Origin: Chitinophagaceae bacterium | GTDB lineage: Bacteria; Bacteroidota; Bacteroidia; Chitinophagales; Chitinophagaceae | Length of the DNA: 64,000 bases | Reading direction: 5' to 3' | Assembly (NCBI GenBank): GCA_017307735.1 | Contig: JAFKGR010000019.1 | Location: 2,622-66,621 of the forward strand | In this document: piece by piece, positions 37,218 to 59,110 of the stretch | Layout: the number at the start of each line of letters is the position of its first letter | Position numbering within the stretch: position 1 is the stretch's first letter | Notes under the pieces: model-generated | Told to the model about the DNA's origin: nothing | Databases searched by the model: none | Seen by the model: only the letters and a program-made list of their open reading frames with translations | Translations under genes and position numbers: made by a program

Positions 37218-37225
37218 CAGGTTTT

Positions 37226-37233: not shown

Positions 37234-37247
37234 ACAAAATGATCATT

Positions 37248-40796: not shown

Positions 40797-43700
40797 ATGA
40801 TTTTAAAACCAGGCAACCAAAACGATAACGTTGCCACATCCTTAAAAGCCAAAACATGGATGATTATGAAATTAACAATTGCCTTATTGTTATTTTTTAC
40901 CTTCCAGGTTAGCGCTAAAACCCTTGCGCAGAGAATCACTATAGTTAAAAATAATATTCATCTTTCAGAGGTATTTAAAGATATTGAACAACAAACAGAG
41001 TATCATTTTTTCTATGATAAGGACCTGATAAAAAACACGTACCCAATTGACATTGGTATTAAAAATGCAACTTTAGATCAGGCGTTATCAGTGTGCTTAA
41101 AAGGGCAGAATCTGACTTATTCGGTTGTGAAAAATACAGTGGTGATAAGGCCGGAAATAAAAACAAATTACCATCAGGTTCAGCCTACTTTCCCACTTAA
41201 GAATCCTACTGTACAACTGTCTATTGAGATTCATGGACGGGTAGTGAACGAGCAGGGAGATCCCCTGCAAGATGCCAGTGTAACGATTAAAGGCACTAAT
41301 AAAGGTGTTGTCACAAATAGCAACGGAGATTTTACGATTGATGTTCCAGATACTAAGGCAGTGATTATATTTAGTTTTACCGGTTATAAATCGCAAGAAA
41401 TCAGGGTTGACAACAAATCCACAATAAATGTAATACTGGTAAGAGAGGACAATGCTTTAAATGAAGTTGTTGTTACAGCGTTAGGAATCAAACAGGAGAA
41501 AAAGACTCTTACTTATGCTACCCAAAGCGTAAACCCCGAACAGATGACAAAAGCGCGGGAGCTGAATGTAATAAATTCATTAGAGGGGAAAGTCGCCGGT
41601 TTAAACATTAGTCAGACCGGAAGTGGAGTTGGCGCACCTTCAAGGGTGACATTGCGTGGAAACCGTTCTATCAATGGGGACAGCCAGCCTTTATATATTA
41701 TTGATGGTGTACCTGTGCTTGGAGTACCAGAGTTTTTGAACTCTGATGAAATAGCTTCCATTGAAGTATTAAAGGGGTCAAATGCTGCAGCCCTGTATGG
41801 AAGTGATGCACAAAACGGAGCAATTATTATTACCACTAAGAAAGGGCGAGAAGGTGTAACAAAGGTGTCACTCAACAACACATTTATGGCGAGCCAGGCC
41901 GATCTTAGTATCCCGTTTCAGAACGTTTATGGTCAGGGAATCAACGGAACATATCAGAAAGGTTCAGGTTATTCATGGGGTCCGAAGATGGAAGGACAAT
42001 CTGTTAGTAACTGGACACTCGATCCTTCCAGGGCAGGCGAGACGTATTCAATGACTCCGCAACCTGATAATGTAAAAGATATTTTTCAAACCGGCTATAC
42101 CATATCGAACAATTTACAGGCAAGTCTTGGGGGAAAGAATACACAGGCTTTTTTTTCTCTCACTTCTACTGAAGGTAGAGGAATTTTATCCAGTAATAAA
42201 TTACAACGAAATAATTTAATGGCTCGGGTAACCAGTAGTCTTTCAAAGAAATTTTCACTTGATGTCAAACTAAGTTACACAAGGCAGAAAATTGATAATC
42301 CTTTGAGACAGAGTACGGATAATTTTAACCCAATGCAGCAGATATATGATATTCCAAGAAATATCAGAACGCAGGATGCAAAAAAATTTGAATTTCCCGA
42401 TGCAAATGGGGTTATGCAGCAGGATTTCTGGGCACCCGGATTTTCATCAACAGCTGAAAATCCTTATTGGGTTTTAAATCGTAATCTTTTTGAAGAGGAA
42501 GTTGGTAGAATAACTGGCATGGCTTCGCTAACTTATCACATTCTGGACAATTTAGACCTGATGGTTCGCAGCTCATATGACAGAGTTGATGAAACTGATG
42601 AGCAAAAGGATTATAACGGAACGTTAGTTAGAGCTTTACATGGACGATACTATGTAACCAAAAGAAATAATTATGAATTTAATAGTGATTTTCTTTTATC
42701 CTACAATAAAGACCTTTCCGAAAATTGGGATTTAGATTTACATGCGGGAGGAAATGTCAAGAATCGGCTGTTGAATGAATCCTTAAGTTCCAATACGGGA
42801 GATGCACTTTCGATACCAAACTTCTTCTCATTATCTAATACCACGCTGCCTGTAACCAGCTATAATCCCGGAGCTCCGATTAATATACAATCCTTGTATG
42901 CATTTGGTAAAATTAGTTGGAAAGATGCCATCTTTTTGGATTTGACGGGTCGTAATGATTGGAGTTCTACGTTACCTGCGAGCAGCCGTTCATATTTTTA
43001 TCCGTCGGCCGGATTGTCCGTGATTCTTTCAGATTTGATTCCTTCTTTTCCTAAAGTATTCGATTTTGCAAAAATCAGGGCTTCATATGCAAAGGTCGGA
43101 AGCAGTGCGCCCCCGTTTATGTTACAACGTACGGCAACATTTTCTGCCGGAGGATCAAACGGCTTTATTGCTTTAGGTAATACTTTGCCCAACAAAAATC
43201 TTAAGCCTGAAGAGACGAAGTCTTTTGAAAGTGGGGTTGATGTACGTTTCCTTAAAGGAAGGTTGGGATTAAATTTTACATACTTTAAGACCAATACAGT
43301 AAATCAATTGTTCACGATTGCATTACCAGTCGGTTCTGGCGCAGCTTCTTTCTATACCAATGGAGGGAATATTCAAAATAAAGGAGTGGAGGTTGTTTTA
43401 AACACCGTGCCTGTACAAACAAAGAATTTCAGATGGACGCTTGATGTCAATTTTTCTCATTTGAAGAATACTGTTGTGAGTATATCTGACGAACGGCCAA
43501 AAGTTGTTATTGCATCAAACTTTGCTTCCGATTACGTAATACAGCAGGGACTTCCTTTTGGAGATATTTTTACCATTGGGTTTAAGCGGGATAGTATCGG
43601 TAGAGTAATAGTAGGAAGTAATGGTGTCCCACAAGTGGTAAATAGTAAAAATCATGACATTGGCCATTACACTCCTGATTGGACGTCAGGCATCTCAAGT

Positions 43701-44225
43701 TCTTTTTCATATAAAAGGTTTAATTTATCATTTGTTATTGATCACAGGCAGGGCGGCATCGTTGAATCTTTTACAAGAGCCTCTCTTGATTTTCTCGGAG
43801 TATCCAAAGAAACACTTCAGGGAAGAGAAGGCGGGCTAATTTTTGGACAGAATATTTTTAAGAATTATACAGCGGTTACGGAGGATGGCAAGGTAAATAC
43901 CATCCCGGTTGATGCCCAAACCCTTTGGAGTACCATTGGGAATATAAGTTTGCCCGTTGGTGAAGTATATGCTTTGGATGCAACCAATACGCGTCTGCGG
44001 GAACTAATTATTGGTTATACTCTGCCAGAATCTTTCACGAGGAAGTTACATCTATCCGGCGTAGATGTTTCTCTGGTAGGCAGAAATCTATTTTTTATTT
44101 CCAGAGCCACTCCGGGCCTTGATCCGGACATTCTAACCGGAACAGGCACTTCTTCTGAAGGCTATTCAACTTATCCACCACCTTCCACCCGTTCTTATGG
44201 CATTAACGTGAAAATTAATTTTTAA
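40797..44225 (+). CDS. SusC/RagA TonB-dependent transporter with N-terminal signalling extension
   Basis: MKLTIALLLFFTFQVSA then STN-like domain; EIASIEVLKGSNAAALYGSDAQNGAIIITTKKG; GRNDWSSTLP; C-terminal YGINVKINF. Confidence 0.97.
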   Translation: MILKPGNQNDNVATSLKAKTWMIMKLTIALLLFFTFQVSAKTLAQRITIVKNNIHLSEVFKDIEQQTEYHFFYDKDLIKNTYPIDIGIKNATLDQALSVCLKGQNLTYSVVKNTVVIRPEIKTNYHQVQPTFPLKNPTVQLSIEIHGRVVNEQGDPLQDASVTIKGTNKGVVTNSNGDFTIDVPDTKAVIIFSFTGYKSQEIRVDNKSTINVILVREDNALNEVVVTALGIKQEKKTLTYATQSVNPEQMTKARELNVINSLEGKVAGLNISQTGSGVGAPSRVTLRGNRSINGDSQPLYIIDGVPVLGVPEFLNSDEIASIEVLKGSNAAALYGSDAQNGAIIITTKKGREGVTKVSLNNTFMASQADLSIPFQNVYGQGINGTYQKGSGYSWGPKMEGQSVSNWTLDPSRAGETYSMTPQPDNVKDIFQTGYTISNNLQASLGGKNTQAFFSLTSTEGRGILSSNKLQRNNLMARVTSSLSKKFSLDVKLSYTRQKIDNPLRQSTDNFNPMQQIYDIPRNIRTQDAKKFEFPDANGVMQQDFWAPGFSSTAENPYWVLNRNLFEEEVGRITGMASLTYHILDNLDLMVRSSYDRVDETDEQKDYNGTLVRALHGRYYVTKRNNYEFNSDFLLSYNKDLSENWDLDLHAGGNVKNRLLNESLSSNTGDALSIPNFFSLSNTTLPVTSYNPGAPINIQSLYAFGKISWKDAIFLDLTGRNDWSSTLPASSRSYFYPSAGLSVILSDLIPSFPKVFDFAKIRASYAKVGSSAPPFMLQRTATFSAGGSNGFIALGNTLPNKNLKPEETKSFESGVDVRFLKGRLGLNFTYFKTNTVNQLFTIALPVGSGAASFYTNGGNIQNKGVEVVLNTVPVQTKNFRWTLDVNFSHLKNTVVSISDERPKVVIASNFASDYVIQQGLPFGDIFTIGFKRDSIGRVIVGSNGVPQVVNSKNHDIGHYTPDWTSGISSSFSYKRFNLSFVIDHRQGGIVESFTRASLDFLGVSKETLQGREGGLIFGQNIFKNYTAVTEDGKVNTIPVDAQTLWSTIGNISLPVGEVYALDATNTRLRELIIGYTLPESFTRKLHLSGVDVSLVGRNLFFISRATPGLDPDILTGTGTSSEGYSTYPPPSTRSYGINVKINF

Positions 44226-44246
44226 AAAATTATAAAAGATACTGTT

Positions 44247-45887
44247 ATGAATACCATTAAAATAAAACAAGGGTTATCTAATATATTCCTGCTGATTTTC
44301 CTTCTGGCTCTTGGCGGATGTACCAAAAATTTTGATACGATTAATACCCCTAAAAACACTTTGACTGCCGGTCAGATTAATTCCGCAACTATAGGGCAGG
44401 CTTTCGCAGATGCCCAGTATTGGGGACTTGTGGGAGATGGCAGTGGATGGGAACTGATGCATGAGTTGCATGCAAATCTATATTCCCAGATTTTTGCTAC
44501 CACATCTTCAGGTTTTAATACAGATCAATTCCAGGAGACTGCATCATGGGTTGACGCAGGCTGGAGAGCTTTTTATTCAGGCCCAGCAGTCATGATCAAG
44601 TTTGTAGAGGATTTTACTCAGGAGAATAATATGCCGGCTGCTAATGCGATCGCAAAAATATATAGTGTTCCAATGTATGAACGAATGACTGACTTTTTCG
44701 GCCCGATTCCTTTTTCTCAATTCGGGAATGGTAAAACAACTGTACCATATGATTCCCAGCAGTCTATTTATGAGGCTTTCTTTAAAATACTTGATTCTGC
44801 AGTACTCGTTTTGAAACAAAATACCAGTGCGACTTCGTTTGGAACAAACGACATTATTTACCAGGGTAAAATAGATAAGTGGATAACATTTGCTAATTCG
44901 TTGAGGTTGAGACTTGCAATGCGAATTGTATATGCCGATCCTTCATTGGCACAACAGGAAGCAGAAAAAGCCGTTGCAGCCGGTGTAATGATGTCTAACA
45001 GTGATAATGCTCTTATCCTGACTACCCCTAATAACCTAAATTATTTAACCCGCTGGAGTTATATTAATCCATTTACAATGAGTGCTACCCAGGAGAGCAT
45101 ATTAGTAGGTTTTAATGACCCAAGACTTTTTGCTTTTTGGAATCAGGGGGGCGGCAGGCTTGGAGGTAATATGGGATACAATGGGTTAAGAAATGGATTA
45201 CCCAGAGTTTTAAAAACCACGTCTGTAAGAAACGGGATGGCCGGCAATTCATTTGTCTCAAATCAATTTTTACCCTTAGCTGATGGAGGCACAAATCCCC
45301 GTTGTATTGTTATGACTGCTTCTGAAGTATATTTCCTGAGGGCAGAAGGTGCGTTAAGAGGTTGGAATATGGGAGGAACAGCAGAAGATTTGTATAACAA
45401 TGGCATTACACAATCATTAAAATATTGGACAAACTCTACAGATCTGGATATCCAGAATTATATAAATAGCACTAATACACCATCGGCTGTTCCTGATGGA
45501 ATAGTTAATGCTACATTTAACACTCCTCCTGAATCTGATATCACTGTTAAATACCAGGGTACCGCAGGTTTTGAAACTCAGCTAGAGCAAATAATTACTC
45601 AAAAATGGATAGATTCCTACTTAACTCCGTGGGAGGCATGGGCAGAGCGCAGGAGGACCGGATATCCCAGGGGATATGCCATAATTGCATCCTTAGATCC
45701 GTCTATACCTGTAACTGCCATAATCAGAAGAATGGTTTTTGCTCCAAGTGAGTTTAGTAATAATCAAGTTGAAGCAAATAAAGCAGTTACATTATTGGGA
45801 GGACCCGATATAACGATGACCAGGGTTTGGTGGGATAAAAAGCCATTGGCCGACTATCCTGATTTGTCCAGTTCGATTGTTCATTGA
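44247..45887 (+). CDS. SusD/RagB-like nutrient-binding lipoprotein (SusD-like_2 type)
   Basis: Lipobox LGGC, TDFFGPIPFSQ, WITFANSLRLRLAMR, SEVYFLRAEGALRGW, LEQIITQKW, EAWAERRRTGYP. Confidence 0.93.
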   Translation: MNTIKIKQGLSNIFLLIFLLALGGCTKNFDTINTPKNTLTAGQINSATIGQAFADAQYWGLVGDGSGWELMHELHANLYSQIFATTSSGFNTDQFQETASWVDAGWRAFYSGPAVMIKFVEDFTQENNMPAANAIAKIYSVPMYERMTDFFGPIPFSQFGNGKTTVPYDSQQSIYEAFFKILDSAVLVLKQNTSATSFGTNDIIYQGKIDKWITFANSLRLRLAMRIVYADPSLAQQEAEKAVAAGVMMSNSDNALILTTPNNLNYLTRWSYINPFTMSATQESILVGFNDPRLFAFWNQGGGRLGGNMGYNGLRNGLPRVLKTTSVRNGMAGNSFVSNQFLPLADGGTNPRCIVMTASEVYFLRAEGALRGWNMGGTAEDLYNNGITQSLKYWTNSTDLDIQNYINSTNTPSAVPDGIVNATFNTPPESDITVKYQGTAGFETQLEQIITQKWIDSYLTPWEAWAERRRTGYPRGYAIIASLDPSIPVTAIIRRMVFAPSEFSNNQVEANKAVTLLGGPDITMTRVWWDKKPLADYPDLSSSIVH

Positions 45888-46075
45888 ATTTAATTTTCTG
45901 ACTCCAACAGCAATCAATCCCTATTTATTAATTATTGTTTTAAGAAACTGAGAATTCTAATTATTTGTTCATTCACTTTAGTCCTATTATAAAAGCTTTT
46001 AAAGTCTAAGTTATTTCTGGGCCGCCAAAGATCAGGTAATACATGGACTAAAGTCGTCAAAGTAAATTCTTTAAA

Positions 46076-48715
46076 ATGATGAAATCAAGGTTCATAATAA
46101 CCATTATTTTTTTCTTTTTTGGGATACCGGATTTTTGTCTTGCGCAAAAAGTCCAATCAGAAAATAACATTGTCTCTTTGAAGATCAGGCAGGACTTTTT
46201 TGATAGAGGTAATCTTATCAAAAATAATTCTTTTGAACTGGCAACCGTTAAAGGGAATGACAGTGTTATTCACAATTTTAGTCTTTTAAACTGGACTGTT
46301 ATTGGTAAAAATGTGCAATTAACTGATATTACCCGAAGGAGCAGTAACGACTCAGAGGCATATTCCGGAATTCATGCGATAAAAATTGTCAGGTCAAAAG
46401 AGGATGTAAAAGAAATAGACAATGAATCTGAAGGTGTATTAACTGATTTTATTGAGGTGATACCTGGTAATTTTGATTTCTATTTTGATATTCGGCTGGA
46501 AAATATCATTCCATCACCCTATCCTGAAAGATATCATTCCAGAATCGACAAAGGAATCGATATTCACCTGCAATTTTACGATAAGAATAAAAAACCGATC
46601 AATCCGGGATATTATTTTGAATACGTGAATAAAAAAGTAGATAATAGTTTCAAAGGTTTTGCATTCTCTAATTTTTTCTATATTGACAAGTTTGGTTGGG
46701 CGAGGGTAAAGGCGAGAACGTGGAATTATCCTTATTCCGAAGGAGATCTGCCGGGTAATTGTAAGTATGTAAAAATCTTTGCAGGTTTGAAAAGTAGTGG
46801 TACAATGTGGATCGATAACCTTGATTTTCGTCTCTCGAAGTGGAGTTTCACTCCGATGGAAAGAATGGATTCTTTTTTCCAAAAGAAATATACACTTTCT
46901 CAGTTACTGATACCAGCACCCCGCCTTATGGCGAATCAACAAACTGTTGATTTGAAAAATAAGAAAGTTAGCCTGGTTTACGATGGAAAACAATTTCCTG
47001 AAATGAATGCGGCCATTACACTGTTACGGGAAAGGTTCTTTAATATCTATCACGATTCAGTGCGGGTAGAAAAAACTGAAAAAGGTGCTGCAAATTCAAA
47101 AAAGCTTCAAATTATATTTTTAGATCAGGCAAACAAGGCCAGTACTGAATTCGCTCAATCTTATCATTCCATAGCCGGCAAGGACCAGGGTTATTTCATG
47201 CTTAAGAAAGCAAATAAGATTTATATCGGGGCCAATAAACCCACCGGTTATTTTTACGCTGCCAGCAGTTTATGTCAGCTGATCAATTATGAAAATAAAA
47301 CACTCGATTATGTGGATATTACCGATTATCCGGATTTTACCGGTCGTTCAACGGTACTAATGGGGTTTCAGAATAAGTGGGAAATGCAGCAAAATAAAAA
47401 GCTTTCAGATTCGGCATTGAACCAGAGAATACTGGAGCGGAACAAAAACCTTGACAGGCAGTTAAAGGATATTGATTTTTATGTCTTCTATAAGATTAAT
47501 TTACTTTATGATAATTATTTTTTGAATAGTAAAAGATGGTGGATGCCGGGAGAATTTTATAACACCTATTACTCAAAGATTGGCGACAAGTGTGCACAAT
47601 ATGGTGAGATCATGAATACGGCAGTACAGGTTAATCCTTATTACCACATTGAAATGGAGCAACGGGTGGATACTCTTACTGATTCTTTAAAAAATATTTT
47701 TTCGCACGGAACAGATGATGGATTTCAGAAAGTCTTAAACGTATTAAAGCCTGCTTTGGAAGCCGGTGCAAAAACGGTTATGGTATGTGCGGATGATTAT
47801 ATTCCTCATTTAGGATCTCAGCGTGGAGAATACATCTTATTTTCTAAATCGGATATATCGGAATTCACCAATCTTGCATCCGCTCAATATTATTTGCTCA
47901 ATAAGTTGAACAGATGGCTAAAGGAACACTATGGCGATATTCGTTTGGAATTTGTTCCGCCTCAATACAATAATTTATTTGTTGATTATACCCGCGGGAC
48001 TGCAGAATCCTATTTTCATGATCTGATGGAACATTTGGATCCGGATATTGTGATTGTCTGGACAGGGAACACGATACGTTCATTATCTTATGATGCTGCG
48101 GATATTTTTAGATTTACGGAATTAATACAAAAGAAGCCGATGGTGTGGGACAACTCTCCTTATGCCAGAATGGTGGAATCAAAAAATGGCGGGTACCCGA
48201 TAAATTACCCTGAAAAATCAGTTTTATGTAATTTGTTTGAGCCATTTGATATTCAATATCCGGAAAATTTCCCGTCCTATATTGATGATCATTATTATTC
48301 GAATCTGGGTGGATTTGGGGAAATAAATAAAATCAAGTATCTGACTTTTGCTGATTTTTCATGGAATACGAATGACTACAACCCCGATTTTTCTCTTTAT
48401 AAAGCACTTGTACATTACGTTGGAAAAACCAACGCCGGGCTTTTACTGAAGTTCAACGATGCTTATTATCAATTTGTATCACGATGGGGCAAATTACGTA
48501 TGGAACGGGAGCATAACCCATTATATCAATTAGAGGCCGATGAATTAAAATCAGCACAGCAGGATATGTCTGAGATGAAAGCCGCATTTAATGCCCTGCG
48601 TGTTATGGATAATAAAGCGCTGTATAACGAGCTGAGAAATGTTATGAACGTAAAAATAGAAGCGTGGAATAAATTAATTCAAACAGCCATTCCTCAGACT
48701 TCTTTGAAAAAATAA
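46076..48715 (+). CDS. Beta-N-acetylhexosaminidase-like protein (GH20b-like domain plus GH84/NAGidase-like barrel), secreted
   Basis: Signal peptide; QGYFMLKK...IYIGANKPTGYFYAASSLCQL and ITDYPDFTGR (GH20b-like); ADDY acid pair, VWTGNTI and WDNSPY resemble GH84 motifs. Confidence 0.68.
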   Translation: MMKSRFIITIIFFFFGIPDFCLAQKVQSENNIVSLKIRQDFFDRGNLIKNNSFELATVKGNDSVIHNFSLLNWTVIGKNVQLTDITRRSSNDSEAYSGIHAIKIVRSKEDVKEIDNESEGVLTDFIEVIPGNFDFYFDIRLENIIPSPYPERYHSRIDKGIDIHLQFYDKNKKPINPGYYFEYVNKKVDNSFKGFAFSNFFYIDKFGWARVKARTWNYPYSEGDLPGNCKYVKIFAGLKSSGTMWIDNLDFRLSKWSFTPMERMDSFFQKKYTLSQLLIPAPRLMANQQTVDLKNKKVSLVYDGKQFPEMNAAITLLRERFFNIYHDSVRVEKTEKGAANSKKLQIIFLDQANKASTEFAQSYHSIAGKDQGYFMLKKANKIYIGANKPTGYFYAASSLCQLINYENKTLDYVDITDYPDFTGRSTVLMGFQNKWEMQQNKKLSDSALNQRILERNKNLDRQLKDIDFYVFYKINLLYDNYFLNSKRWWMPGEFYNTYYSKIGDKCAQYGEIMNTAVQVNPYYHIEMEQRVDTLTDSLKNIFSHGTDDGFQKVLNVLKPALEAGAKTVMVCADDYIPHLGSQRGEYILFSKSDISEFTNLASAQYYLLNKLNRWLKEHYGDIRLEFVPPQYNNLFVDYTRGTAESYFHDLMEHLDPDIVIVWTGNTIRSLSYDAADIFRFTELIQKKPMVWDNSPYARMVESKNGGYPINYPEKSVLCNLFEPFDIQYPENFPSYIDDHYYSNLGGFGEINKIKYLTFADFSWNTNDYNPDFSLYKALVHYVGKTNAGLLLKFNDAYYQFVSRWGKLRMEREHNPLYQLEADELKSAQQDMSEMKAAFNALRVMDNKALYNELRNVMNVKIEAWNKLIQTAIPQTSLKK

Positions 48716-48726
48716 TAAAATATATC

Positions 48727-49914
48727 TTGATGGAAAAGAAACTAAAAATAACTAACGGCCGGATTCTGACTCCTTTCCGGATTATTTCAAATGGAACCGT
48801 AGTTGTAACTGATAATAGGATCACTGACGTAGTGGAAGGAAATGTACACGTTGCCAGAGCAATCGAAATAGATGCACAGGGTCAATATATTTCTCCGGGA
48901 TTTATCGATATACATGTACACGGTGGTGGGGGAAGCGATTTTATGGATGGGACAGTGGAAGCATTTTTAAAAGTAGCAGAGACTCATGCTCGTTATGGGA
49001 CTTCCTCCATGTTACCGACCACGCTCACCAGTGAGACCGAAGAGCTTTTTCATACTTTGGAAATTTATAAGGAGGCTAACAAATCAAATCTTCTCGGTGC
49101 TCAATTCCTTGGAATCCATCTTGAGGGGCCCTATTTTGCTTTGAATCAGAAGGGAGCACAGGACCCGCGATATATCCGTAATCCAGATCCGAAGGAATAT
49201 AAGGAGATATTATCCCGTTCATCGGACATCAGACGATGGAGCGCTGCTCCTGAGCTGGAAGGCGCCATTGAATTTGCACGTTACCTTAAGTCTAAGGGAA
49301 TACTGGTAGCACTTGCTCATACCGATGCTGTCTATGAAGAAGCTTTACTTGGTTTTGAAAATGGATTTACTCTCGCCACTCATTTCTATTCGTGCATGAA
49401 TGGAGTTACACGCAAAAATGCACTACGCTATGCCGGTGCTATAGAATGTGCTTACTTAGTTGATGAAATGGATGTGGAGGTCATTGCCGATGGAATACAC
49501 TGTCCGCCGCCCCTATTAAAATTAATATATAAAATAAAAGGAGTCGACCGGACAGCATTGATCACCGATTCTATGAGAGCAGCCGGCATGCCAGAGGGAG
49601 AAAGTATTTTAGGCAGTCTGAATAATGGGCTGAGGGTTATTGTTGAAGACGGAGTTGCAAAATTGCCGGACCGGACTTCTTTTGCAGGAAGCGTAGCTAC
49701 AACGGATCGGCTGGTACGTACTATGGTAAAGATGGCGGATGTCCCTTTACTTGACGCTGTAAAGATGGCTGCAAAAACTCCTGCTTCTATTCTGGGGATT
49801 TCTGATCGGAAAGGTTCTTTATTACCTGGGAAAGATGCGGATATTTTGATTTTTAATGATGATATTGAAATACAAACTACCATCATTAATGGAAAGGTTA
49901 TTTATAGTAAGTAA
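48727..49914 (+). CDS. nagA: N-acetylglucosamine-6-phosphate deacetylase
   Basis: PGFIDIHVHGGGG, GIHLEGPY, AHTDA, ATHFYSCM, IADGIHC, LITDSM, FAGSVAT. Confidence 0.93.
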   Translation: MMEKKLKITNGRILTPFRIISNGTVVVTDNRITDVVEGNVHVARAIEIDAQGQYISPGFIDIHVHGGGGSDFMDGTVEAFLKVAETHARYGTSSMLPTTLTSETEELFHTLEIYKEANKSNLLGAQFLGIHLEGPYFALNQKGAQDPRYIRNPDPKEYKEILSRSSDIRRWSAAPELEGAIEFARYLKSKGILVALAHTDAVYEEALLGFENGFTLATHFYSCMNGVTRKNALRYAGAIECAYLVDEMDVEVIADGIHCPPPLLKLIYKIKGVDRTALITDSMRAAGMPEGESILGSLNNGLRVIVEDGVAKLPDRTSFAGSVATTDRLVRTMVKMADVPLLDAVKMAAKTPASILGISDRKGSLLPGKDADILIFNDDIEIQTTIINGKVIYSK

Positions 49915-51041: not shown

Positions 51042-52388
51042 ATGAAAAAGAGTTTAAAAACAATACGGGGAAGCTCCTTGAGCACGCGGGATACCATTAT
51101 TCCTATCGCAATCATAGGATTCTTATTTTTTATATTTGGGTTTATATCCTGGTTAAATTCAATTTTGATTCCCTATTTCAGGATAGCCTGTGAGCTCAAT
51201 AATTTCGAATCGTATCTTGTAACATTTGCTTTTTATATAAGTTATTTGGTGTTTTCCATACCCTCTTCTTATTTATTGAATCGTGCAGGGTATCGTAAGG
51301 GCATAATGATTGGCTTTTGGGTTATGGCAGCGGGGGCACTAATTTTTGTTCCTGCCGCCTTCACAAGAGCGTATCAGTTTTTTCTGCTAGGCCTATTTAC
51401 TATGGGCGCAGGCACGGCACTCTTACAAACGGCAGCAAATCCTTACATTACCATATTGGGGCCAAAGGAAAGGGCTTTACAGCGAATCAGCATCATGGGT
51501 ATTATGAACAAACTGGCTGGTGTTTTTGCCCCGTTACTTTTTGCTGCTGTGGTATTGAGAGCTACCGATGCTGAGTTATTCAAACAAATACCGTTGATGA
51601 GTGAAGTAGCAAGAAATGCTGCATTAGATGAATTAATCAGGCGGGTGATTGTCCCGTATATAATTATGGGAGCGGTGCTTTTTGTTTTAGGTTTATTGAT
51701 CCGCTATTCCCCCTTGCCCGAAATAACCAACGAGGATGATCATACTGATGTAGTGTTAGTAGCATCAGAGAAAAAGCGGATATTTAAATACCCTCATCTT
51801 ATTTTGGGTGTAGTTGCCATATTCCTGCACATAGGAGCCCAGGTATTGTCCATTGATACGATTATTAGCTACGCCAACTCAATGAATATAGATTTACTCG
51901 AGGCGAAAGTTTTTCCTTCCTACACATTATTTACTATGGTAATTGGTTACGTTATCGGGATTGTATGTATTCCAAGATTTATCAGCCAGCTACGAGGGTT
52001 ACAAATTTCTGTTGTATTGGGTCTCTTACTAACATTTCTGATTATATATGCACAAAAACAGGTTACTTTTTTAGGGCATACCGCAGACATGTCAATATGG
52101 TTTATAGTACTTCTTGGTTTGCCAAACTCTTTAATATGGGGCGGAATATGGCCGCTTGCATTAGATGGATTGGGGCGCTTTACTAAACTTGGAGCTGCCC
52201 TTCTGATCATGGGATTAACAGCAAATGCGCTGATGCCACTACTGTATGGATACCTTGCCGATATATATAATCCTCATGATGCTTATTGGGTATTATTCCC
52301 TTGTTTTTTGTTTCTGGTGTATTATGCATTCTATGGATATCGTGTAAAAAGATGGTCCTTTTCAAAGAGTCAAAGTACAGTGCATTAA
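51042..52388 (+). CDS. Sugar MFS transporter (GluP/FucP/NagP family)
   Basis: About 12 hydrophobic segments; LFFIFGFISWLNSILIP, LLQTAANPYITILG, GGIWPLALDGLG. Confidence 0.93.
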   Translation: MKKSLKTIRGSSLSTRDTIIPIAIIGFLFFIFGFISWLNSILIPYFRIACELNNFESYLVTFAFYISYLVFSIPSSYLLNRAGYRKGIMIGFWVMAAGALIFVPAAFTRAYQFFLLGLFTMGAGTALLQTAANPYITILGPKERALQRISIMGIMNKLAGVFAPLLFAAVVLRATDAELFKQIPLMSEVARNAALDELIRRVIVPYIIMGAVLFVLGLLIRYSPLPEITNEDDHTDVVLVASEKKRIFKYPHLILGVVAIFLHIGAQVLSIDTIISYANSMNIDLLEAKVFPSYTLFTMVIGYVIGIVCIPRFISQLRGLQISVVLGLLLTFLIIYAQKQVTFLGHTADMSIWFIVLLGLPNSLIWGGIWPLALDGLGRFTKLGAALLIMGLTANALMPLLYGYLADIYNPHDAYWVLFPCFLFLVYYAFYGYRVKRWSFSKSQSTVH

Positions 52389-52409
52389 AATTAAATTGGG
52401 AATGTAATC

Positions 52410-55400
52410 ATGATGAAGAAATTAATCTTTGTTGTATTGACTATCTGCATCACCATTCTTGAGGTCAGGGGTGATAAAATTAATTCTGAAATTAATTCAG
52501 AGAACAGGGCTTCGGTTTTGGATTCTGTGAATACCGCCATTGTACTTGAGCCATTTACCTATTCTCAAAATTTTGAAAGCCGGGATCTTGGTGCATGGGC
52601 ATCATATCCGCTCTGGCAGGATAACGCCTATGATCAGAACTTTCAGGTAGGCCAGATTATACCGGATAATCCTAACCTGTCTATAGTTGCTAAAGTAACT
52701 CCATACTCAAATGTGGACAATTATGCGGGTGCCCAAAAATTGCTTGATATGTACCTTGTACCCGGAGCAAAAGTCAGGTTCAGATATTATTTAAAAACCA
52801 ACCTGAACGGTGAATTCCTAAAAGTTCGGTTTGCCGCCGGGGAATATGGCAAGATTGATTTCACCATATCAGCACCAGAAACTAATAAGTGGGTGTGGGT
52901 GACATTGGGATTTGATGATTTTGTCAGGGAGAACCCCCGCATAGCTGGTAACAATAAATTAAAGATATATGCTTTGGCATTCCTTGCCAAAATTCCAAAT
53001 GCTGATCCGGCTATGCCGATTTATCTTGGCCTGGACGATATTAACTTTAAGGGCGCACAACCTGTGGCTTTTCAATTTATAACGCCATCGATGGATAAGC
53101 TACCGGAATTTAAACCATATATTCCTAAAAAACCTTATTACCAGGGAGATGTATTTAATTTGAGCGGGCGCTGGCCTCTGAAAGCAAATAAAGTAAAAGT
53201 TGAAATTTCCAAATATACAGAGCCGGGAACCCTCATTTATAAGGGGAACTTAATCCGGAAGGATAATGAATGGATGTTGAAACCATTGAAACTTTCCTAC
53301 CCCGAGGGACTTTACATCGGAAAGTTGATTTCCTATAATGGTTCTGTCAGGTTATCTGAAACTGAATTTACTATACATATTGCTCCAAAAGTAATTTCTG
53401 GTGAACATCCGCGTCTGCTCTTTAATAATGATAAGAAAAAATGGATGGAGGACAGATTCAAAGAAAAACGTTTTCAGTCCTTATATAATGACATAATAAA
53501 TAATGCCAAAAGTGAACGTGAAAAAATCCCACTTGGAAGCCTCCAATACGATCTTGATCAATTTCCTGATAAGGATTGGCTTCCCTCCTGGGATGCGTTT
53601 GGATTGCATATTTATAATACGGGATCCGCCCTCGAGTTGAATGCACTCGCCTATACTTTTCATAATGATAGTGTGGCAGGAGAATATGCTAAAAACGTGT
53701 TGGTTAAACTTTCCGGATGGCCAACCTGGGTATCTCCCTGGCTCATGAGACGGGGGCGCTTCAGCGAACATCGATTGGGCACGTGGTCTCATCAGGTAGC
53801 ATTGGCCTATGATCTCACTTATAATCTAATGACTCCTGATGAGCGGTCTAAGATTCGTAAAGCGATTATAGAAAAAATAATAAAGGGAGCTTGCCGGACT
53901 TATGTTTATGATAATATGGTCACTTCTAATACCTCTAACTGGATTGGTCATATCGTTGGGGGAGCACTGATGAACATGGCTGCTATTTACGGAGATGGCC
54001 CTGACACGAAAGACATGGAGCCTTATTTTACAGGTTCTTTGATGAAACTTTATGCCTTTATTACTCATGTTACATGCTCTGAGGGAGGTGCATACGGAGA
54101 AGGGTACGGTTATAATAACTATACATTCTCTAATTTTTCTTACAGCCTGCCTTCTCTCTATAATGTTTTCAATATAGATGTTACAACCCCTTTGGTTGGG
54201 ACGTATAATGAATATATCTGGGGTGGGTTAATTAAAGACAGAAAGTGGTTTGGCTATGGTGATTCGGGTGATAGCATTCTTCCTGCAACCAATTGGGCAT
54301 TTCTTTTAGGGATGCAAAAAGATCCACGTTTAAGTTGGTATTATAATTATCTTAAGGATGGAGAAACGTTTAAAGATTTGTTATTTGACACCAAAGACAT
54401 CCCACAAAATAGTCCATTTAACAAAAGCCCGGACAAAGTATTTCCTGAGATTGGAACGACGGTCTTTAAGAGTGGTTGGGAAAAGAATGACTTTTCTTTT
54501 GTAATGAGGACTGGTTCTTTTTATAATCACCAGCATCTTGACCAGGGTAGTTTTTATCTGGCAGATAAAGGGGTGACCTTTATTGAAGATCACTCTATGG
54601 AGCAATCTACCTATTATGATGATCCGATATATCAGTCCGATTTTATTCAACCTGTATCTCACTCTACAATTCTCATCAATCATAATCCCCAAAGCCAGCG
54701 TGTTGGGGATCCTCTGAACTTTGCACCAGGTTTTAATGATCATGCCTTTGTCAGGCAATTTCTGGATGGCAGGGATGCAGCATTCTTCAGCGGTGACATA
54801 GGCAGGCTTTACTGGGGTAAGGTAGAATCTCTGACTCGTAATGTTCTTTATATTAAACCAGGAATAGTTCTCATGCTTGATATAGCAAAGCCGGGGAAAA
54901 AGGATGTGGATGTTACACTGCTATATCAAACGTCACATTTAAAAGATATTGATCCCGGACATCAGGTTTCTAAAATTACGAAAGGTGGATTTTCTCTAAA
55001 CATCATGCATCTTGCTCCCCGATTTGTAGAATCAAAAGCTGTGGAAACACCGCACTACCTTAAGACGCTTCTTAGGGAGAAGCCGCTTGTAAAAGAGGGT
55101 ATGCTTACAGTTACAGCACATACACATGGTACCCCACTCGTGATGGCGAACCTTCTAACAACTACTGCTGACGGTGTTGCTCCTGATGTGTCGGTTAAAA
55201 ATGGCAATGGATTTGAATCAGGTGAGATATCAGGAAAGAAATTTGTTTTTACCACAATACCAGGAAGTCTTTACCAAACCGAAAATATGGAAACAGATGC
55301 TTTGGCTGTTACATGGAGTTCAGAAAGGACATTTGTTGCTATGACCACTATTTTCAAAAAGAATAATAACCTTATTCTAAAATCTGATTTTCCGGTAACT

Positions 55401-55589
55401 TTTGAATTATCAGGCAATAGCCTGAAATACTATTGTGACAAAGCAGGTGAACTTAAGATTGGAGCGGCATCAAAGCCTTCTTCAATTATGCTTAATGGCG
55501 AAATAGTCAAGACTTATTTATATGATAAAGAAAATAGGGTTGTAATTATTAAAGTCCCAAAAGGAGAGGGAGCTATAGTTGTTAAATGA
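52410..55589 (+). CDS. Heparinase II/III-like (DUF4962-type) polysaccharide lyase candidate, secreted
   Basis: Signal peptide; HPRLLF, SNTSNWIGH, GAYGEGYGY, YNHQHLDQGSFYL, SHSTILIN, all typical of the Hepar_II_III fold. Confidence 0.8.
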   Translation: MMKKLIFVVLTICITILEVRGDKINSEINSENRASVLDSVNTAIVLEPFTYSQNFESRDLGAWASYPLWQDNAYDQNFQVGQIIPDNPNLSIVAKVTPYSNVDNYAGAQKLLDMYLVPGAKVRFRYYLKTNLNGEFLKVRFAAGEYGKIDFTISAPETNKWVWVTLGFDDFVRENPRIAGNNKLKIYALAFLAKIPNADPAMPIYLGLDDINFKGAQPVAFQFITPSMDKLPEFKPYIPKKPYYQGDVFNLSGRWPLKANKVKVEISKYTEPGTLIYKGNLIRKDNEWMLKPLKLSYPEGLYIGKLISYNGSVRLSETEFTIHIAPKVISGEHPRLLFNNDKKKWMEDRFKEKRFQSLYNDIINNAKSEREKIPLGSLQYDLDQFPDKDWLPSWDAFGLHIYNTGSALELNALAYTFHNDSVAGEYAKNVLVKLSGWPTWVSPWLMRRGRFSEHRLGTWSHQVALAYDLTYNLMTPDERSKIRKAIIEKIIKGACRTYVYDNMVTSNTSNWIGHIVGGALMNMAAIYGDGPDTKDMEPYFTGSLMKLYAFITHVTCSEGGAYGEGYGYNNYTFSNFSYSLPSLYNVFNIDVTTPLVGTYNEYIWGGLIKDRKWFGYGDSGDSILPATNWAFLLGMQKDPRLSWYYNYLKDGETFKDLLFDTKDIPQNSPFNKSPDKVFPEIGTTVFKSGWEKNDFSFVMRTGSFYNHQHLDQGSFYLADKGVTFIEDHSMEQSTYYDDPIYQSDFIQPVSHSTILINHNPQSQRVGDPLNFAPGFNDHAFVRQFLDGRDAAFFSGDIGRLYWGKVESLTRNVLYIKPGIVLMLDIAKPGKKDVDVTLLYQTSHLKDIDPGHQVSKITKGGFSLNIMHLAPRFVESKAVETPHYLKTLLREKPLVKEGMLTVTAHTHGTPLVMANLLTTTADGVAPDVSVKNGNGFESGEISGKKFVFTTIPGSLYQTENMETDALAVTWSSERTFVAMTTIFKKNNNLILKSDFPVTFELSGNSLKYYCDKAGELKIGAASKPSSIMLNGEIVKTYLYDKENRVVIIKVPKGEGAIVVK

Positions 55590-55976: not shown

Positions 55977-56801
55977 ATGGAACAGGAAAATCAAGAATCA
56001 TTAAAAGGGAAAGTGATAGTAGTGACCGGGGGCACAGGAATTCTGGGTAATTCATTCATAAATGGAATTGCTGAGGCCGGAGGCATAGTAGGTATTTTAG
56101 GAAGAAACGAATCCGTTGCCAGAGACCGGGCAGCCCTCCTTATTGATAAAGGAGGTGAGGCAATTGCTTTAATAGCGGATGTACTCAATGAGAAGGAGCT
56201 TCATGCGGCAAAAAACCGGGTTCTGGATCAATTTGGTAAGATTGATGGATTAGTTAATGGTGCGGGTGGAATATTACCTGAAGGTGTTTTGATGCCAGAT
56301 CAAGACCTTTTTAAAATGAACCTGGAAGGGATGAAAAAAGTTATGGATCTGAATACGTGGGGCACCATTATTCCAAGTCAGATATTTGGTGAAGCCATTG
56401 CTCAAACAGCAGGGGAAGGAAGCATCGTTAATATTTCATCTATGAATTCAAAGCGAGCGATTACACGGGTTTTGGGATATAATATGGGAAAGGCGGCTGT
56501 AGATTGTTATAACCAGTGGTTTGCTGTGGAATTGGCAAACCGTTATGGAGATAAAATCCGGATGAACGCATTGGCCCCCGGATTTTTTCTGACCGAGCAG
56601 AATAAAAAACTCTTAATTAATGAGGATGGCAGTTTTACCGATCGGGGAAACCTTATCATTAGGCAAACGCCCTTTAAACGATTTGGAAATCCCGATGAAT
56701 TAAAAGGAGCCTTAGTTTGGTTGTTAAGCGACCAATCCAGGTTTGTTACAGGTGCGATGATTTGTGTCGATGGTGGATTTTCCATTTATGGAGGTGTTTA
56801 A
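55977..56801 (+). CDS. SDR oxidoreductase, D-mannonate/fructuronate reductase (UxuB)-like
   Basis: TGGTGILG, NGAGG, YNMGK (YxxxK), MNALAPGFFLTEQN. Confidence 0.88.
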   Translation: MEQENQESLKGKVIVVTGGTGILGNSFINGIAEAGGIVGILGRNESVARDRAALLIDKGGEAIALIADVLNEKELHAAKNRVLDQFGKIDGLVNGAGGILPEGVLMPDQDLFKMNLEGMKKVMDLNTWGTIIPSQIFGEAIAQTAGEGSIVNISSMNSKRAITRVLGYNMGKAAVDCYNQWFAVELANRYGDKIRMNALAPGFFLTEQNKKLLINEDGSFTDRGNLIIRQTPFKRFGNPDELKGALVWLLSDQSRFVTGAMICVDGGFSIYGGV

Positions 56802-56840
56802 GGTATAATTAATCCATATTTAAGAAAACCAAATATTATC

Positions 56841-57866
56841 ATGGCAAAAAAAGTTGTTACACTCGGAGAAATAATGCTTCGTTTATCCACACCTGACTAT
56901 AAGAGATTTGTTCAGGCAGATAGTTTTGATGTTACTTATGGCGGCGGTGAAGCCAATGTGGCCGTAGCTCTTTGTAATTATGGACTGCAGGGTGTTTTTG
57001 TTTCAATAGTTCCTGAGAATGCTATCGGCCAGTCAGCGATCAATCATTTGCGCCGCTTTGGCGTGGACACACAATTTATGGTTCGCGGAGGAAAAAGATT
57101 AGGCATTTATTTTCTGGAAACCGGTGCTTCCATGCGTCCTTCACAAGTCATATACGATCGTGCTGATGCAGCGATTGTCGAAGCTGATGTAATCGATTTC
57201 GATTTTGATAAAATATTTGAAAATACATCCTGGTTTCATACGACCGGCATTACACCCGCTTTAGGCGACAAAGCAACTGTACTTACGGAAGCCGCACTGA
57301 AAGCCGCACGGGCAAAGGGAATTACTACAAGCATTGATTTGAATTATCGTAAGAAATTATGGAGTAGGGAAAAAGCAAAAGAAGTGATGACGCGGCTTTG
57401 CCGGTACGTAGATGTATGCATCGGCAATGAAGACGATGCAGAAACTACGCTCGGTTTTAAAGGCAAAGGAACTGATGTTACCAAAGGACAATTGAACCTT
57501 GATAGTTATAAAGATGTTTTTCAGCAGATGAAGGAAAAATTTGGTTTCAAATATATCGCTTCAACGCTGAGAGAGAGTTATAGTGCTTCAGATAACGGAT
57601 GGAGCGCGCTGGTATATGATGGCAATGAATTTTATCATACCAAAAAATATGAAGTGCGAATCATAGATCGCGTGGGCAGCGGTGATTCATTTGCCAGCGG
57701 ATTCATTTACGGATTGGTTTCGGGAATGGAAATGAAAGATGCAGCCGAATTTGGCGTAGCCGCATCTGCATTAAAACACACAATCCCCGGCGACATCAAT
57801 CATGCTACACTCAATGATGTAAAAAATCTGGCCAAAGGCGATGCAAGTGGTAGGGTGCAGAGATGA
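56841..57866 (+). CDS. kdgK: 2-dehydro-3-deoxygluconokinase (PfkB family)
   Basis: GEIMLRLS, YGGGEANVA, IDLNYRKKLW, DRVGSGDSFASG. Confidence 0.9.
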   Translation: MAKKVVTLGEIMLRLSTPDYKRFVQADSFDVTYGGGEANVAVALCNYGLQGVFVSIVPENAIGQSAINHLRRFGVDTQFMVRGGKRLGIYFLETGASMRPSQVIYDRADAAIVEADVIDFDFDKIFENTSWFHTTGITPALGDKATVLTEAALKAARAKGITTSIDLNYRKKLWSREKAKEVMTRLCRYVDVCIGNEDDAETTLGFKGKGTDVTKGQLNLDSYKDVFQQMKEKFGFKYIASTLRESYSASDNGWSALVYDGNEFYHTKKYEVRIIDRVGSGDSFASGFIYGLVSGMEMKDAAEFGVAASALKHTIPGDINHATLNDVKNLAKGDASGRVQR

Positions 57867-57970
57867 GGGTAATGAATAGTGAATTTAAAAAAAATCGTAA
57901 AAAAGCAAGTTTCATAAACGATGTCTAAAATTGGCAAATCTGATCGTATTTGCCTCAACAAAAAAATAGA

Positions 57971-58423
57971 ATGATAATAGACCACTTGTCGAACGCAGAA
58001 AAATACTTTTGTTTACATCCCCTGTTCAAACAGGCATTCGAATACATACAGTCAACGGATCTCAAAGCAATTGAGCCAGGGAAATTTGAGATTAATGAAG
58101 ACAAGCTTAGGGCAGCCATTTCCAATAAACAAGGCAGGACTGCAGAAGAGGCTTTGACGAAGTTTGAATGCCATGACAGGCATATTGATATACAACTCTG
58201 CATTAGCGGTAAAGAAACAATAGCATGGAAAGCCCGAAGTGCCTGCAAACAATTAGAAGGAGGGTATGATACAGAAAAGGATGTTTCTTTTTTTAAAGAT
58301 AAGCCGGATATGTATTTTCAATTAGAAGACGGACAGTTTGCTGTTTTTTTCCCGGGAGATGTGCATGCCCCTATGATTGGTGAGGAAGAGATTAAGAAAT
58401 TAGTAGTAAAAGTAAAAATGTAA
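57971..58423 (+). CDS. YhcH/YjgK/YiaL family protein (ORF track starts at 57950)
   Basis: FECHDRHIDIQ, FAVFFPGDVHAP, KKLVVKV. Confidence 0.92.
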   Translation: MIIDHLSNAEKYFCLHPLFKQAFEYIQSTDLKAIEPGKFEINEDKLRAAISNKQGRTAEEALTKFECHDRHIDIQLCISGKETIAWKARSACKQLEGGYDTEKDVSFFKDKPDMYFQLEDGQFAVFFPGDVHAPMIGEEEIKKLVVKVKM

Positions 58424-58447
58424 TTTTTCAAATTTAATAATGAATAA

Positions 58448-59110
58448 ATGATGGAAAAGAAATCTGAATTATTAAAGCTGATACCAAAACAAGGTGTGTT
58501 ACCACTTTATTTTTATAAAGATGAAGAAGTAAGTGTAGAAGTATTAAGAAGTTTATACAATGCCGGCATGAGAGCAGTTGAATATACCAACAGGGGAGAG
58601 GCGGCATTGCAGAATTTTAAGAAAATGAGGCGTGTATGTGATCAGGAATTAACCGGAATGTATCTGGGTGTTGGTACGATAAAGAGTGCTGAAATGGCTG
58701 AAATTTTCATCAGTGAAGGGGCAGATTTTATTGTTTCTCCAGGATTCGTCGTGGAGGTTGCCGATGTTGCCGATAAAAGCAATATGTTATGGATTCCCGG
58801 TTGTATGACTCCGTCAGAAATTATTCAAGCGGAAAATTTAGGTGCTTCAATGATTAAACTTTTTCCCGGGAATCTTCTGGGTCCTGAATTTATGAGTTCA
58901 ATAAAAGCTCTGTTTCCGGATCTTTTATTTATGCCAACAGGTGGTGTGAATCTGGATAAAGAGAATATTTCTGCATGGTTTAAGGCGGGTGTTTGTGCAG
59001 TGGGAATGGGTAGCAAACTCATCAGCAAAAAATTATTGGAACAAAAAGATTATGCAAAGATTGAGGCGTTGGCAAAAGAGGCTCTGAGTATTGTGCAGTC
59101 ATTAAAATAA
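58448..59110 (+). CDS. eda: KDPG/KHG aldolase
   Basis: VEYTNRG, LGVGTI, GADFIVSP, PGCMTPSEI, IKLFPG, MPTGGV, AVGMGSKL. Confidence 0.93.
   Translation: MMEKKSELLKLIPKQGVLPLYFYKDEEVSVEVLRSLYNAGMRAVEYTNRGEAALQNFKKMRRVCDQELTGMYLGVGTIKSAEMAEIFISEGADFIVSPGFVVEVADVADKSNMLWIPGCMTPSEIIQAENLGASMIKLFPGNLLGPEFMSSIKALFPDLLFMPTGGVNLDKENISAWFKAGVCAVGMGSKLISKKLLEQKDYAKIEALAKEALSIVQSLK

Follow-up and report, generated by a model that had tools for sequence, protein, structure and literature searches.

Genomic indications of a possible phosphorylation-independent route for N-acetyl-amino-uronate catabolism in a Chitinophagaceae bacterium

The 64,000-nucleotide stretch of Chitinophagaceae DNA analysed here (the window; assembly GCA_017307735.1, contig JAFKGR010000019.1) carries at positions 40797-59110 a cluster of genes for a SusC/SusD pair, a GH84-like enzyme, NagA-like and NagB-like proteins, a permease of the major facilitator superfamily (MFS), a polysaccharide lyase, a short-chain dehydrogenase/reductase (SDR), KdgK, YhcH and Eda. 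The best reading of this locus, argued from genomics and held by us at about even confidence, is that it degrades an N-acetyl-amino-uronate polymer and that the NagA-like and NagB-like proteins act on the unphosphorylated acid sugar. The polymer probably contains a 2-acetamido uronate of the N-acetylglucosaminuronate (GlcNAcA) or N-acetylmannosaminuronate (ManNAcA) type, as a bacterial capsule, a teichuronic-acid-like polymer or an exopolysaccharide. A sequence-only reading of the same DNA had suggested that deacetylation, deamination and reduction of an N-acetyl-aminouronic acid could lead to 2-keto-3-deoxygluconate (KDG). This suggestion has become the best-supported one. Four things speak for the amino-uronate: the changed phosphate site of the NagB-like protein, a second locus on contig C8, the absence of UxaC and a KduD-type SDR in a related locus, L099.

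Coordinates are positions in the window, Cnn denotes contigs of the same genome (4.1 Mb, 37 contigs, 99.58% complete), and Lnnn denotes compared loci, among which L099 is a metagenome contig and L016 and L017 are the genome's own loci on C8 and C17. Genes were called from an open reading frame map together with Pfam and NCBIfam profile scans of the window proteins.

The proposed route

We infer each substrate and each reaction of the following route. Oligomers would be imported through SusC/SusD. In the periplasm the lyase would beta-eliminate the 4-linked N-acetylhexosamine (HexNAc)-uronate and the GH84-like enzyme would take off HexNAc(-uronate) residues, after which the NagP-like MFS permease would take up the monomers. 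In the cytoplasm the 6-carboxylate would stand in for the 6-phosphate of N-acetylglucosamine-6-phosphate (GlcNAc-6-P), and therefore no kinase would be needed. The NagA-like enzyme would remove the acetyl group as a HexNAc-uronate de-N-acetylase, and the NagB-like enzyme would perform an aldose-to-ketose deamination, giving 2,5-diketo-3-deoxygluconate from unsaturated monomers and D-fructuronate from saturated ones. The SDR would reduce 2,5-diketo-3-deoxygluconate to KDG, and/or fructuronate to mannonate; KdgK and then Eda would follow, and YhcH may assist ring opening. The NagA/NagB-like pair would do the work of GH88 plus KduI (or UxaC), and GH88, KduI and a kinase would not be needed.

A broader proposal, to which we give slightly less than an even chance, is that the genes represent phosphorylation-independent catabolism of GlcNAcA, ManNAcA or the galacto form GalNAcA, in which a widespread NagA/NagB pair yields keto-uronates and replaces GH88 plus KduI, or UxaC, and that the lyase would belong to a family, and the glycosidase to a GH84 subfamily, that are both new. 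No description of amino-uronate catabolism by microbes was found in full-text literature searches; a lyase acting on Vi antigen is already known (PMC6003464).

Two other substrates were considered and rejected. A sialic acid could be suspected from the presence of YhcH with NagA/NagB. However, a lyase is present, and Pfam scans of the locus genes found no sialidase or NanA-type aldolase. A C1-oxidised sugar (glucosaminate) does not suit NagB chemistry, which requires a C1 aldehyde, and the known pathway for it uses other enzyme families.

Link enzymes missing from the genome

Glycosaminoglycan lyase pathways normally need a GH88/GH105 enzyme, KduI, a hexosamine kinase and often sulfatases. All genes listed by the sequence-only reading were recovered at the bounds it gave, all on the plus strand, and window profile scans confirmed that the cluster has no GH88/GH105, KduI, sulfatase or sugar kinase besides KdgK. 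That reading left room for the missing steps to be encoded elsewhere. For three enzymes this can be answered in the negative: KduI was absent from the genome by profile search, UxaC by Pfam and by tblastn with the proteins of related loci, and UxuA by profile search and the same tblastn, contig ends being included in both tblastn searches. For GH88 the case is weak, with one match of 41 bits in the whole genome, in an unrelated context on C17. The kinase step could be supplied from elsewhere, as four ROK genes were found outside the locus. The genome also has two further copies of KdgK and one of Eda. On C17 the GH88-like gene lies in an unusual combination (C17:327408-333721; L017:8408-14722) with genes for a CoA-transferase III, an enoyl-CoA hydratase, an MFS permease, KdgK and Eda.

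These searches bear on the main rival, a more conventional explanation in which the polymer is a copolymer of GlcNAc alternating with an ordinary uronate, as in heparosan-, hyaluronan- or alginate-like material. Here the MFS would import GlcNAc, a ROK kinase from elsewhere would phosphorylate it and the NagA-like and NagB-like enzymes would use the 6-phosphates; the SDR would act on the unsaturated uronate without an intervening step, as it does in alginate loci, and the product would pass to KdgK and Eda. The absence of KduI and UxaC argues against this, since products derived from glucuronate, iduronate or galacturonate would have no known route, and the locus has no uronate transporter: the NagP/FucP-type MFS is its sole inner-membrane transporter. 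The four ROK genes elsewhere are in its favour, as is the alginate pathway itself, which needs neither GH88 nor KduI and runs on an SDR, KdgK and Eda. We regard the copolymer as rather unlikely.

The NagA-like and NagB-like pair

The NagB-like family was compared with Escherichia coli NagB in an alignment of 79 members. It keeps the catalytic residues D72 and H143 and also K208, has Asp in place of E148 and agrees with the motif G-x-G-x-x-G-H-x-A-F-N-[ED]-P, D72 and H143 being invariant. The loop GLPTGGTP of E. coli is replaced by IFAAAPSQ, with A-A-P-S in the segment T41-T44. The residue at R172 is Gln in the 79-member alignment and Val in pairwise comparison with the NagB of Bacillus subtilis and Streptococcus mutans; the Arg is lost either way. 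A new invariant R-x-Q-Q-V motif is carried by the 79 members. The score of the protein falls under the NCBI NagB equivalog cut-off (TIGR00502), and the ESM Atlas offered generic names only.

In the NagA-like family (64 members; residues numbered as in E. coli) the metal ligands and catalytic residues, which are the HxH motif, E131, H195, H216 and D273, are invariant, and R227 is retained. Four residues are inserted in the R227 loop, among them a second invariant Arg, and N219 is replaced by Ser in all 64 sequences. Judged from the alignment, the loop with its extra Arg is compatible with either phosphate or carboxylate.

For the copolymer, whose amino-sugar arm would use 6-phosphates, the replaced NagB-like loop and the lost residue aligned to R172 are unfavourable. 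Moreover, C37 already provides a NagA of canonical appearance, which shares 28% identity with the NagA-like protein of the window, and C16 a long NagB. Yet the NagA-like protein scores as NagA, and the MFS resembles NagP, as that explanation would have it.

The NagB-like gene mostly adjoins a NagA-like gene. The family occurs in Bacteroidota, Clostridia, a spirochaete and a Bathyarchaeota genome, and its motifs were matched in at least 598 species. Within the order to which the window belongs it occurs in 4 of 121 genomes, too few for a useful order-level cross-tabulation of co-occurrence. Among 82 loci from several phyla no ROK kinase was found near the pair; the single ROK protein detected looks regulator-like. 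Two trios of NagA-like, NagB-like and MFS genes are present in the genome, one in the window and one on C8. The window MFS is 65% identical to its C8 paralogue and 50% identical to a third copy on C13. A comparison of 33 pair-linked permeases with E. coli FucP and two paralogues revealed no gain of a basic residue, and H263 alone was distinctive.

The two secreted enzymes

Signal peptides are present on the lyase and the GH84-like protein only, and the remaining enzymes of the locus have none. The lyase had been labelled heparinase II/III-like, and this was borne out in the sense of a distant lyase. Against solved structures its sequence matched PL35 enzymes 8KHW and 8KHV (E 3e-9 and 2e-7) and heparinase II only. 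In GAGase II the catalytic triad is Asn192, Tyr246 and His401, and the Mn ligands include His403 and Asp405 (PMC12088678). These five residues align with N510, Y568, H707, H709 and D711 of the lyase, so both the triad and the Mn site are kept; none of the five varies among 22 homologues, some of them paralogues of only 24-25% identity. An AlphaFold model (predicted TM-score 0.83) has N-terminal beta-sandwiches, an (alpha/alpha) toroid and a C-terminal beta-sheet domain. Its top Foldseek matches were PL39 6JP4, PL15 3A0O and 6LJA, PL21, PL35 and human DSE1, at identities of at most 17%. At the family level the PL35 match is at about 17% identity, and Foldseek puts PL39, PL15 and PL21 higher.

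From the aligned residues and the model we conclude that the heparinase-like protein is in all likelihood a functional uronate lyase, only distantly related to PL35, PL39, PL15 and PL21 and assigned to no known family by these comparisons. The conserved Asn/Tyr/His residues and Mn ligands and the toroid-lyase fold therefore predict that the polymer contains 4-linked uronate. The nearness of the fold to alginate and heparin exolyases would also suit the copolymer.

The hexosaminidase-like label of the third gene likewise held, as a distant GH84. The NAGidase match reaches 76 bits (cut-off 25) over profile positions 86-287 of 295, the best PDB matches are GH84 NagJ enzymes (E 5e-13), and the adjacent Asp-Asp pair, which in GH84 serves substrate-assisted catalysis, is kept in the sequence CADDY. 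The protein has an extra N-terminal domain of about 270 residues. By its sequence it belongs to a distant, uncharacterised GH84 subfamily. The database holds 116 relatives, several of them on contigs whose lengths agree with those of lyase-bearing contigs; both genes occur together in L099.

The reductase and the lower pathway

The SDR of the window is of the D-mannonate oxidoreductase type and reaches only 131 bits on the KduD model; the same type is found in L002, L003, L024, L030, L075 and L096. In L099 the corresponding slot is taken by a KduD-type SDR, which scores 324 bits on TIGR01832, is 30% identical to the window SDR and has no KduI nearby. KduD converts 2,5-diketo-3-deoxygluconate to KDG. 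On chemical reasoning 2,5-diketo-3-deoxygluconate would be the product if an unsaturated HexNAc-uronate were deacetylated and then deaminated and isomerised, and the KduD-type SDR of L099 fits such an intermediate coming from the NagB-like enzyme. Either SDR type could plausibly serve, because both reductions give the same D-configured hydroxyl beside CH2OH.

The lower pathway from KDG to 2-keto-3-deoxy-6-phosphogluconate (KDPG) is present, with a PfkB kinase of the KDG type and an Eda above the TIGR01182 cut-off. KdgK scores 538 bits against the kinase half of aldolase/kinase fusions and matches the models of KDG and 2-keto-3-deoxygalactonate kinases, under the equivalog cut-offs. On the N-acetylneuraminate anomerase model the YhcH protein reaches 92 bits, under the cut-off of 160; it possibly serves ring opening or anomerisation of an unsaturated or keto-deoxy sugar acid.

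Could the cluster be two unrelated units that happen to lie side by side? In that case an amino-sugar locus (40797-55589) would be followed by an operon for general KDG use (55977-59110), whose separate promoter would lie in the 387-bp gap that parts the lyase and SDR genes. This gap (55590-55976) is the largest intergenic one in the locus and may hold an internal promoter for SDR-kdgK-yhcH-eda. L099 has neither KdgK nor Eda, and the additional copies of both genes in the genome also suit a separate KDG operon. On the other side, all genes are co-directional, an SDR gene lies directly 3′ of the lyase gene in L002, L003, L019, L099 and L103, and KdgK and Eda adjoin the NagA-like/NagB-like pair in L024 and L088. 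In a consensus scan for promoters and terminators counts were not above those of shuffled sequence, and no intergenic terminator-like site appeared in the gap. Two independent units seem quite improbable to us.

Conservation of the locus in relatives

The gene order of L099 is that of the window: SusC, SusD, GH84-like, NagA-like, NagB-like, MFS, lyase and SDR. The first seven proteins are 59-75% identical to their window counterparts, with SusC at 59%. Because this orthologous locus keeps the same eight-gene order, the cluster is not a chance adjacency. The lyase accompanies the pair in the majority of the loci inspected, which besides the window are L002, L003, L019, L099 and L101. L103 is a probable member of this group; it has the lyase with an MFS, and its contig begins there. 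An MFS gene is usually present too where lyase and pair occur together.

The content of L003 is two lyases, the pair, a ceramidase-like amidase and an SDR, with no glycosidase. This is expected if a single residue bears both the carboxylate and the N-acetyl group, and it is unfavourable to the copolymer, for which a glycosidase would have to free GlcNAc. The lyase is followed by a KduD-type or UxuB-type reductase in six loci, and UxuA comes after the SDR in L002, L019 and L103. In loci of Clostridia type the pair appears in strings with hexuronate genes: L096 has NagB-like-NagA-like-UxuA-UxuB, in a genome without UxaC, and L075 has NagB-like-UxuA-UxuB. L021 carries genes for a DUF386/YhcH protein and an RraA-like protein (class II pyruvate aldolase family) between SusD and the pair (L021:6330-8033), an arrangement that by its gene content is a further link of the pair to 2-keto-3-deoxy acid metabolism.

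The pair might instead act on an amino sugar of another kind, likewise unphosphorylated, such as a 6-deoxy or modified HexNAc that NAD-dependent GH109-like enzymes set free, with the uronate arm serving a separate residue of a mixed bacterial glycan. The lack of a kinase near the pair and the very wide distribution of the NagB-like family would agree with this, as would the commonest neighbours of the pair in the 82 loci, which are not uronate enzymes: Tat-exported (twin-arginine translocation) GFO/IDH/MocA proteins, GH109-like and GH20-like enzymes and AP_endonuc_2 barrels. But the kept K208 and the invariant Arg suggest that the substrate is still anionic. In addition, this explanation does not account for the KduD- or UxuB-type reductase after the lyase in six loci, for loci with only lyases and the pair, or for the source of tagaturonate and fructuronate in a genome without UxaC. 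We think it improbable, though a little less so than two independent units.

Some neighbours deserve separate mention. The pair has two or three Tat-exported GFO/IDH/MocA proteins beside it in L135-L146 and in many loci of the set L018-L097. They are of a GH109-like, a ~450-residue and a ~330-residue type, and could act as NAD-dependent glycosidases or as periplasmic oxidoreductases. An Nramp (Mn/Fe transporter) gene lies directly upstream of the pair in L002:1924-3180, L003:1404-2609 and L019:7366-8631, and also in L028 and L043; Mn is required by PL35 lyases, and the HxH site of the NagA-like protein is of the binuclear type. A neutral-ceramidase-like amidase gene is found between or beside lyase paralogues or the pair (L003:8511-9971, L102:8367-9821; also L034 and L037), and its product may remove another sugar N-acyl group.

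The second locus on contig C8

The second trio lies in a paralogous LacI-regulated locus (L016), which also carries genes for a tagaturonate reductase (532 bits, cut-off 359) and an altronate-type dehydratase. The normal source of tagaturonate is galacturonate, converted by UxaC. Among 401 sampled Bacteroidota genomes, 71 have tagaturonate reductase, and UxaC is present in 70 of these; the single exception is the genome of the window. In related genomes of its family the distance between uxaB and uxaC is no more than a few kilobases. Because the reductase is present and UxaC is absent, tagaturonate needs another source here. A deaminating isomerisation would yield tagaturonate from galactosaminuronate and fructuronate from glucosaminuronate or mannosaminuronate, and these predicted products are the substrates of the reductase types beside the two trios. 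This joining of the same trio to a tagaturonate reductase in a genome without UxaC is a further argument against the GlcNAc-uronate copolymer.

By its gene content the C8 locus would fit a polymer of alpha-linked, O-acetylated GalNAcA, for instance a Vi-type capsule. The two loci are also consistent with each other: the lyase locus has no sugar-acid dehydratase, and the hydrolase-only C8 locus (GH109, esterase) has one. This fits an unsaturated route in the window locus and a saturated route on C8.

The final ~145 bp of C8 is a repeat present at five contig ends. The repeat and kdgK sites are C8:101560-101959, C17:332794-333052 and C17:338211-338355, with the ends of C11, C25 and C37. At its 3′ end, kdgK on C8 shares 97% identity with the C17 copy over 259 bp, which suggests that the two recombined recently or that an element was inserted directly behind kdgK.

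Points against the amino-uronate reading

Several observations weigh against the amino-uronate route. Uronate genes are missing from the majority of the 82 pair-bearing loci, and the commonest neighbours of the pair are those named above. In L088 the pair adjoins UxaC together with KdgK, Eda and an ExuT-like MFS, an arrangement that would suit the copolymer, and four of the five other genomes checked carry UxaC elsewhere. The saturated branch needs a mannonate dehydratase, and there is none in the genome; an enolase-superfamily gene on C8 was considered as a stand-in and rejected, as it reaches only 50 bits for ManD, and its best match, talarate/galactarate dehydratase, is below the cut-off.

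At the level of single proteins, the NagA-like protein passes the NCBI NagA equivalog cut-off and keeps R227, and the MFS resembles a neutral-sugar NagP/FucP carrier with no acid-specific residue signature. The reading of the NagB-like changes as a loss of the phosphate site depends on the assignment of the T41-T44 loop, R172 and K208 of E. coli NagB as ligands of the 6-phosphate, of which the NagB-like family keeps K208 only.

The C8 argument also has its weak points. Neither UxaB nor UxaA is found in 12 loci with orthologues of the C8 NagB-like protein (50-63% identity), which carry Tat-exported GFO enzymes, GH109-like enzymes, esterases, NagA and MFS; the C8 layout is therefore not a conserved operon. 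Furthermore, C8 ends in the multi-copy repeat 179 bp past KdgK, and an unassembled gene may exist there.

Comparison with known systems

The known kinds to which the locus belongs are the polysaccharide utilization locus, the KDG pathway and NagA/NagB chemistry, and the combination found here is a variant of them. A precedent for the conversion of an acidic amino sugar to KDG without phosphorylation is the ong pathway of Pseudoalteromonas for GlcNAc1A, in which the sugar is deacetylated and deaminated unphosphorylated (PMC9537276). Both systems share TonB-dependent outer-membrane uptake, deacetylation and deamination without phosphorylation, KDG, KdgK and KDPG aldolase. The ong pathway differs in that the acid is at C1 (aldonic), the deacetylase is D-aminoacylase-like, a deaminase dependent on pyridoxal phosphate forms KDG directly and uptake is by a carrier of the sodium-solute symporter (SSS) type (PMC9537276). 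In the window locus, in contrast, the acid would be at C6, NagA and NagB paralogues would act, a reductase would be required and a lyase would depolymerise the substrate.

The glycosaminoglycan and pectin route (GH88/GH105, KduI, KduD, KdgK, Eda) shares the 4,5-unsaturated ends made by lyases and the sequence from 2,5-diketo-3-deoxygluconate through KDG to KDPG, including the KduD type seen in L099. However, the window locus has no GH88/GH105 and the genome no KduI, and the isomerisation would be a NagB-like deamination after deacetylation. Alginate loci of Flavobacteriia (PL6/7/17, KdgF and an SDR acting as 4-deoxy-L-erythro-5-hexoseulose uronate reductase) are alike in SusC/D, toroid-fold lyases, a single MFS, SDR, KdgK and Eda and in having no GH88 or KduI; PL39, PL15 and PL17 alginate lyases are among the nearest structural neighbours of the window lyase, at identities of at most 17%. 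They have no NagA/NagB-like or hexosaminidase genes, and the window has DUF386 where the cupin KdgF would be.

The GlcNAc-6-phosphate route (NagP/NagK/NagA/NagB) has the same folds, the same catalytic residues and a NagP-like permease, but there is no kinase in the window locus or the 82 related loci, the NagB-like loop and R172 are changed and an insertion in the anion-binding loop brings an extra Arg into the NagA-like protein. The PL35 enzymes GAGase II and VII (8KHV, 8KHW; PMC12088678) are the best solved-structure matches of the lyase and share the Asn/Tyr/His triad and the H-x-H-x-D Mn site. They differ in that the match is at E 1e-7 to 1e-9 and ~17% identity and the window lyase is ~440 residues longer, its added N-terminal beta-sandwiches giving a layout more like PL15, PL21 and PL39 than PL35. 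Finally, the hexuronate isomerase pathway (UxaC; UxuB/UxuA; UxaB/UxaA) shares the fructuronate (SDR) and tagaturonate reductase types and the altronate dehydratase of C8, but its entry enzyme UxaC is missing here, whereas each of the other 70 UxaB-bearing genomes in the sample has it.

Bacterial surface polymers are rich in amino-uronic acids, examples being Vi antigen, enterobacterial common antigen, staphylococcal capsules, teichuronic acids and many O-antigens. If the amino-uronate reading is true, it gives a function to a NagA/NagB subfamily of at least 598 species in several phyla, now annotated as ordinary GlcNAc enzymes, and explains polysaccharide utilization loci that look incomplete. 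It would also provide candidate new lyase and glycosidase specificities for capsule analysis or degradation, and an extra route for recycling the carbon and nitrogen of bacterial necromass.

Organisation and regulation of the locus

The coordinates of the features are collected in Table 1.

Table 1. Genes of the window locus, its upstream regulators and the paralogous locus on C8
Feature	Position	Strand	Evidence or content
ECF (extracytoplasmic function) sigma factor, presumed locus regulator	36280..36882	+	Sigma70_r2/r4_2
AAA-ATPase gene, inserted between ECF sigma and FecR	37182-38681		
FecR-type anti-sigma factor	39420..40604	+	FecR + FecR_C
SusC-type TonB-dependent transporter with STN signalling domain	40797..44225	+	STN, CarbopepD_reg_2, Plug, TonB barrel
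SusD-like lipoprotein	44247..45887	+	SusD-like 415 bits; lipobox-like N-terminus
GH20b + NAGidase (GH84-like), 879 residues, secreted	46076..48715	+	NAGidase 76 bits, GH20b 40 bits
NagA-like amidohydrolase, cytoplasmic	48727..49914	+	TIGR00221 301.9 bits (cut-off 225.65)
NagB-like Glucosamine_iso protein, cytoplasmic	50117..50881	+	TIGR00502 127.6 bits (cut-off 236.9)
NagP/FucP-family MFS permease	51042..52388	+	NagP model 382 bits (below cut-off 625)
DSE-like_N/Hepar_II_III polysaccharide lyase, 1059 residues, secreted	52410..55589	+	Pfam; PL35 residue alignment
SDR keto-uronate reductase (putative), D-mannonate oxidoreductase type	55977..56801	+	PRK08277 315 bits (cut-off 281)
2-keto-3-deoxygluconate kinase (PfkB, KdgK)	56841..57866	+	PfkB 140 bits
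YhcH/YjgK/YiaL (DUF386) protein	57950..58423	+	DUF386 165 bits; TIGR00022 above cut-off
KDPG/2-keto-4-hydroxyglutarate (KHG) aldolase Eda	58448..59110	+	TIGR01182 158.7 bits (cut-off 156)
Paralogous LacI-regulated locus (L016)	C8:82000-101959		LacI, SusC, SusD, AXE1/S9-type esterase, Tat-exported GH109, NagB-like, NagA-like, MFS, tagaturonate reductase, altronate-type dehydratase, KdgK

The SusC(STN)/SusD pair, the co-directional genes for the GH84-like enzyme and the lyase, and the ECF sigma factor with FecR characterise the cluster, by its sequence, as a polysaccharide utilization locus under ECF-sigma/anti-sigma control. The regulators lie upstream of position 40797 in the order ECF sigma, inserted AAA-ATPase, FecR. 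The ECF-FecR-SusC(STN) arrangement recurs in L099, L002 and L103.

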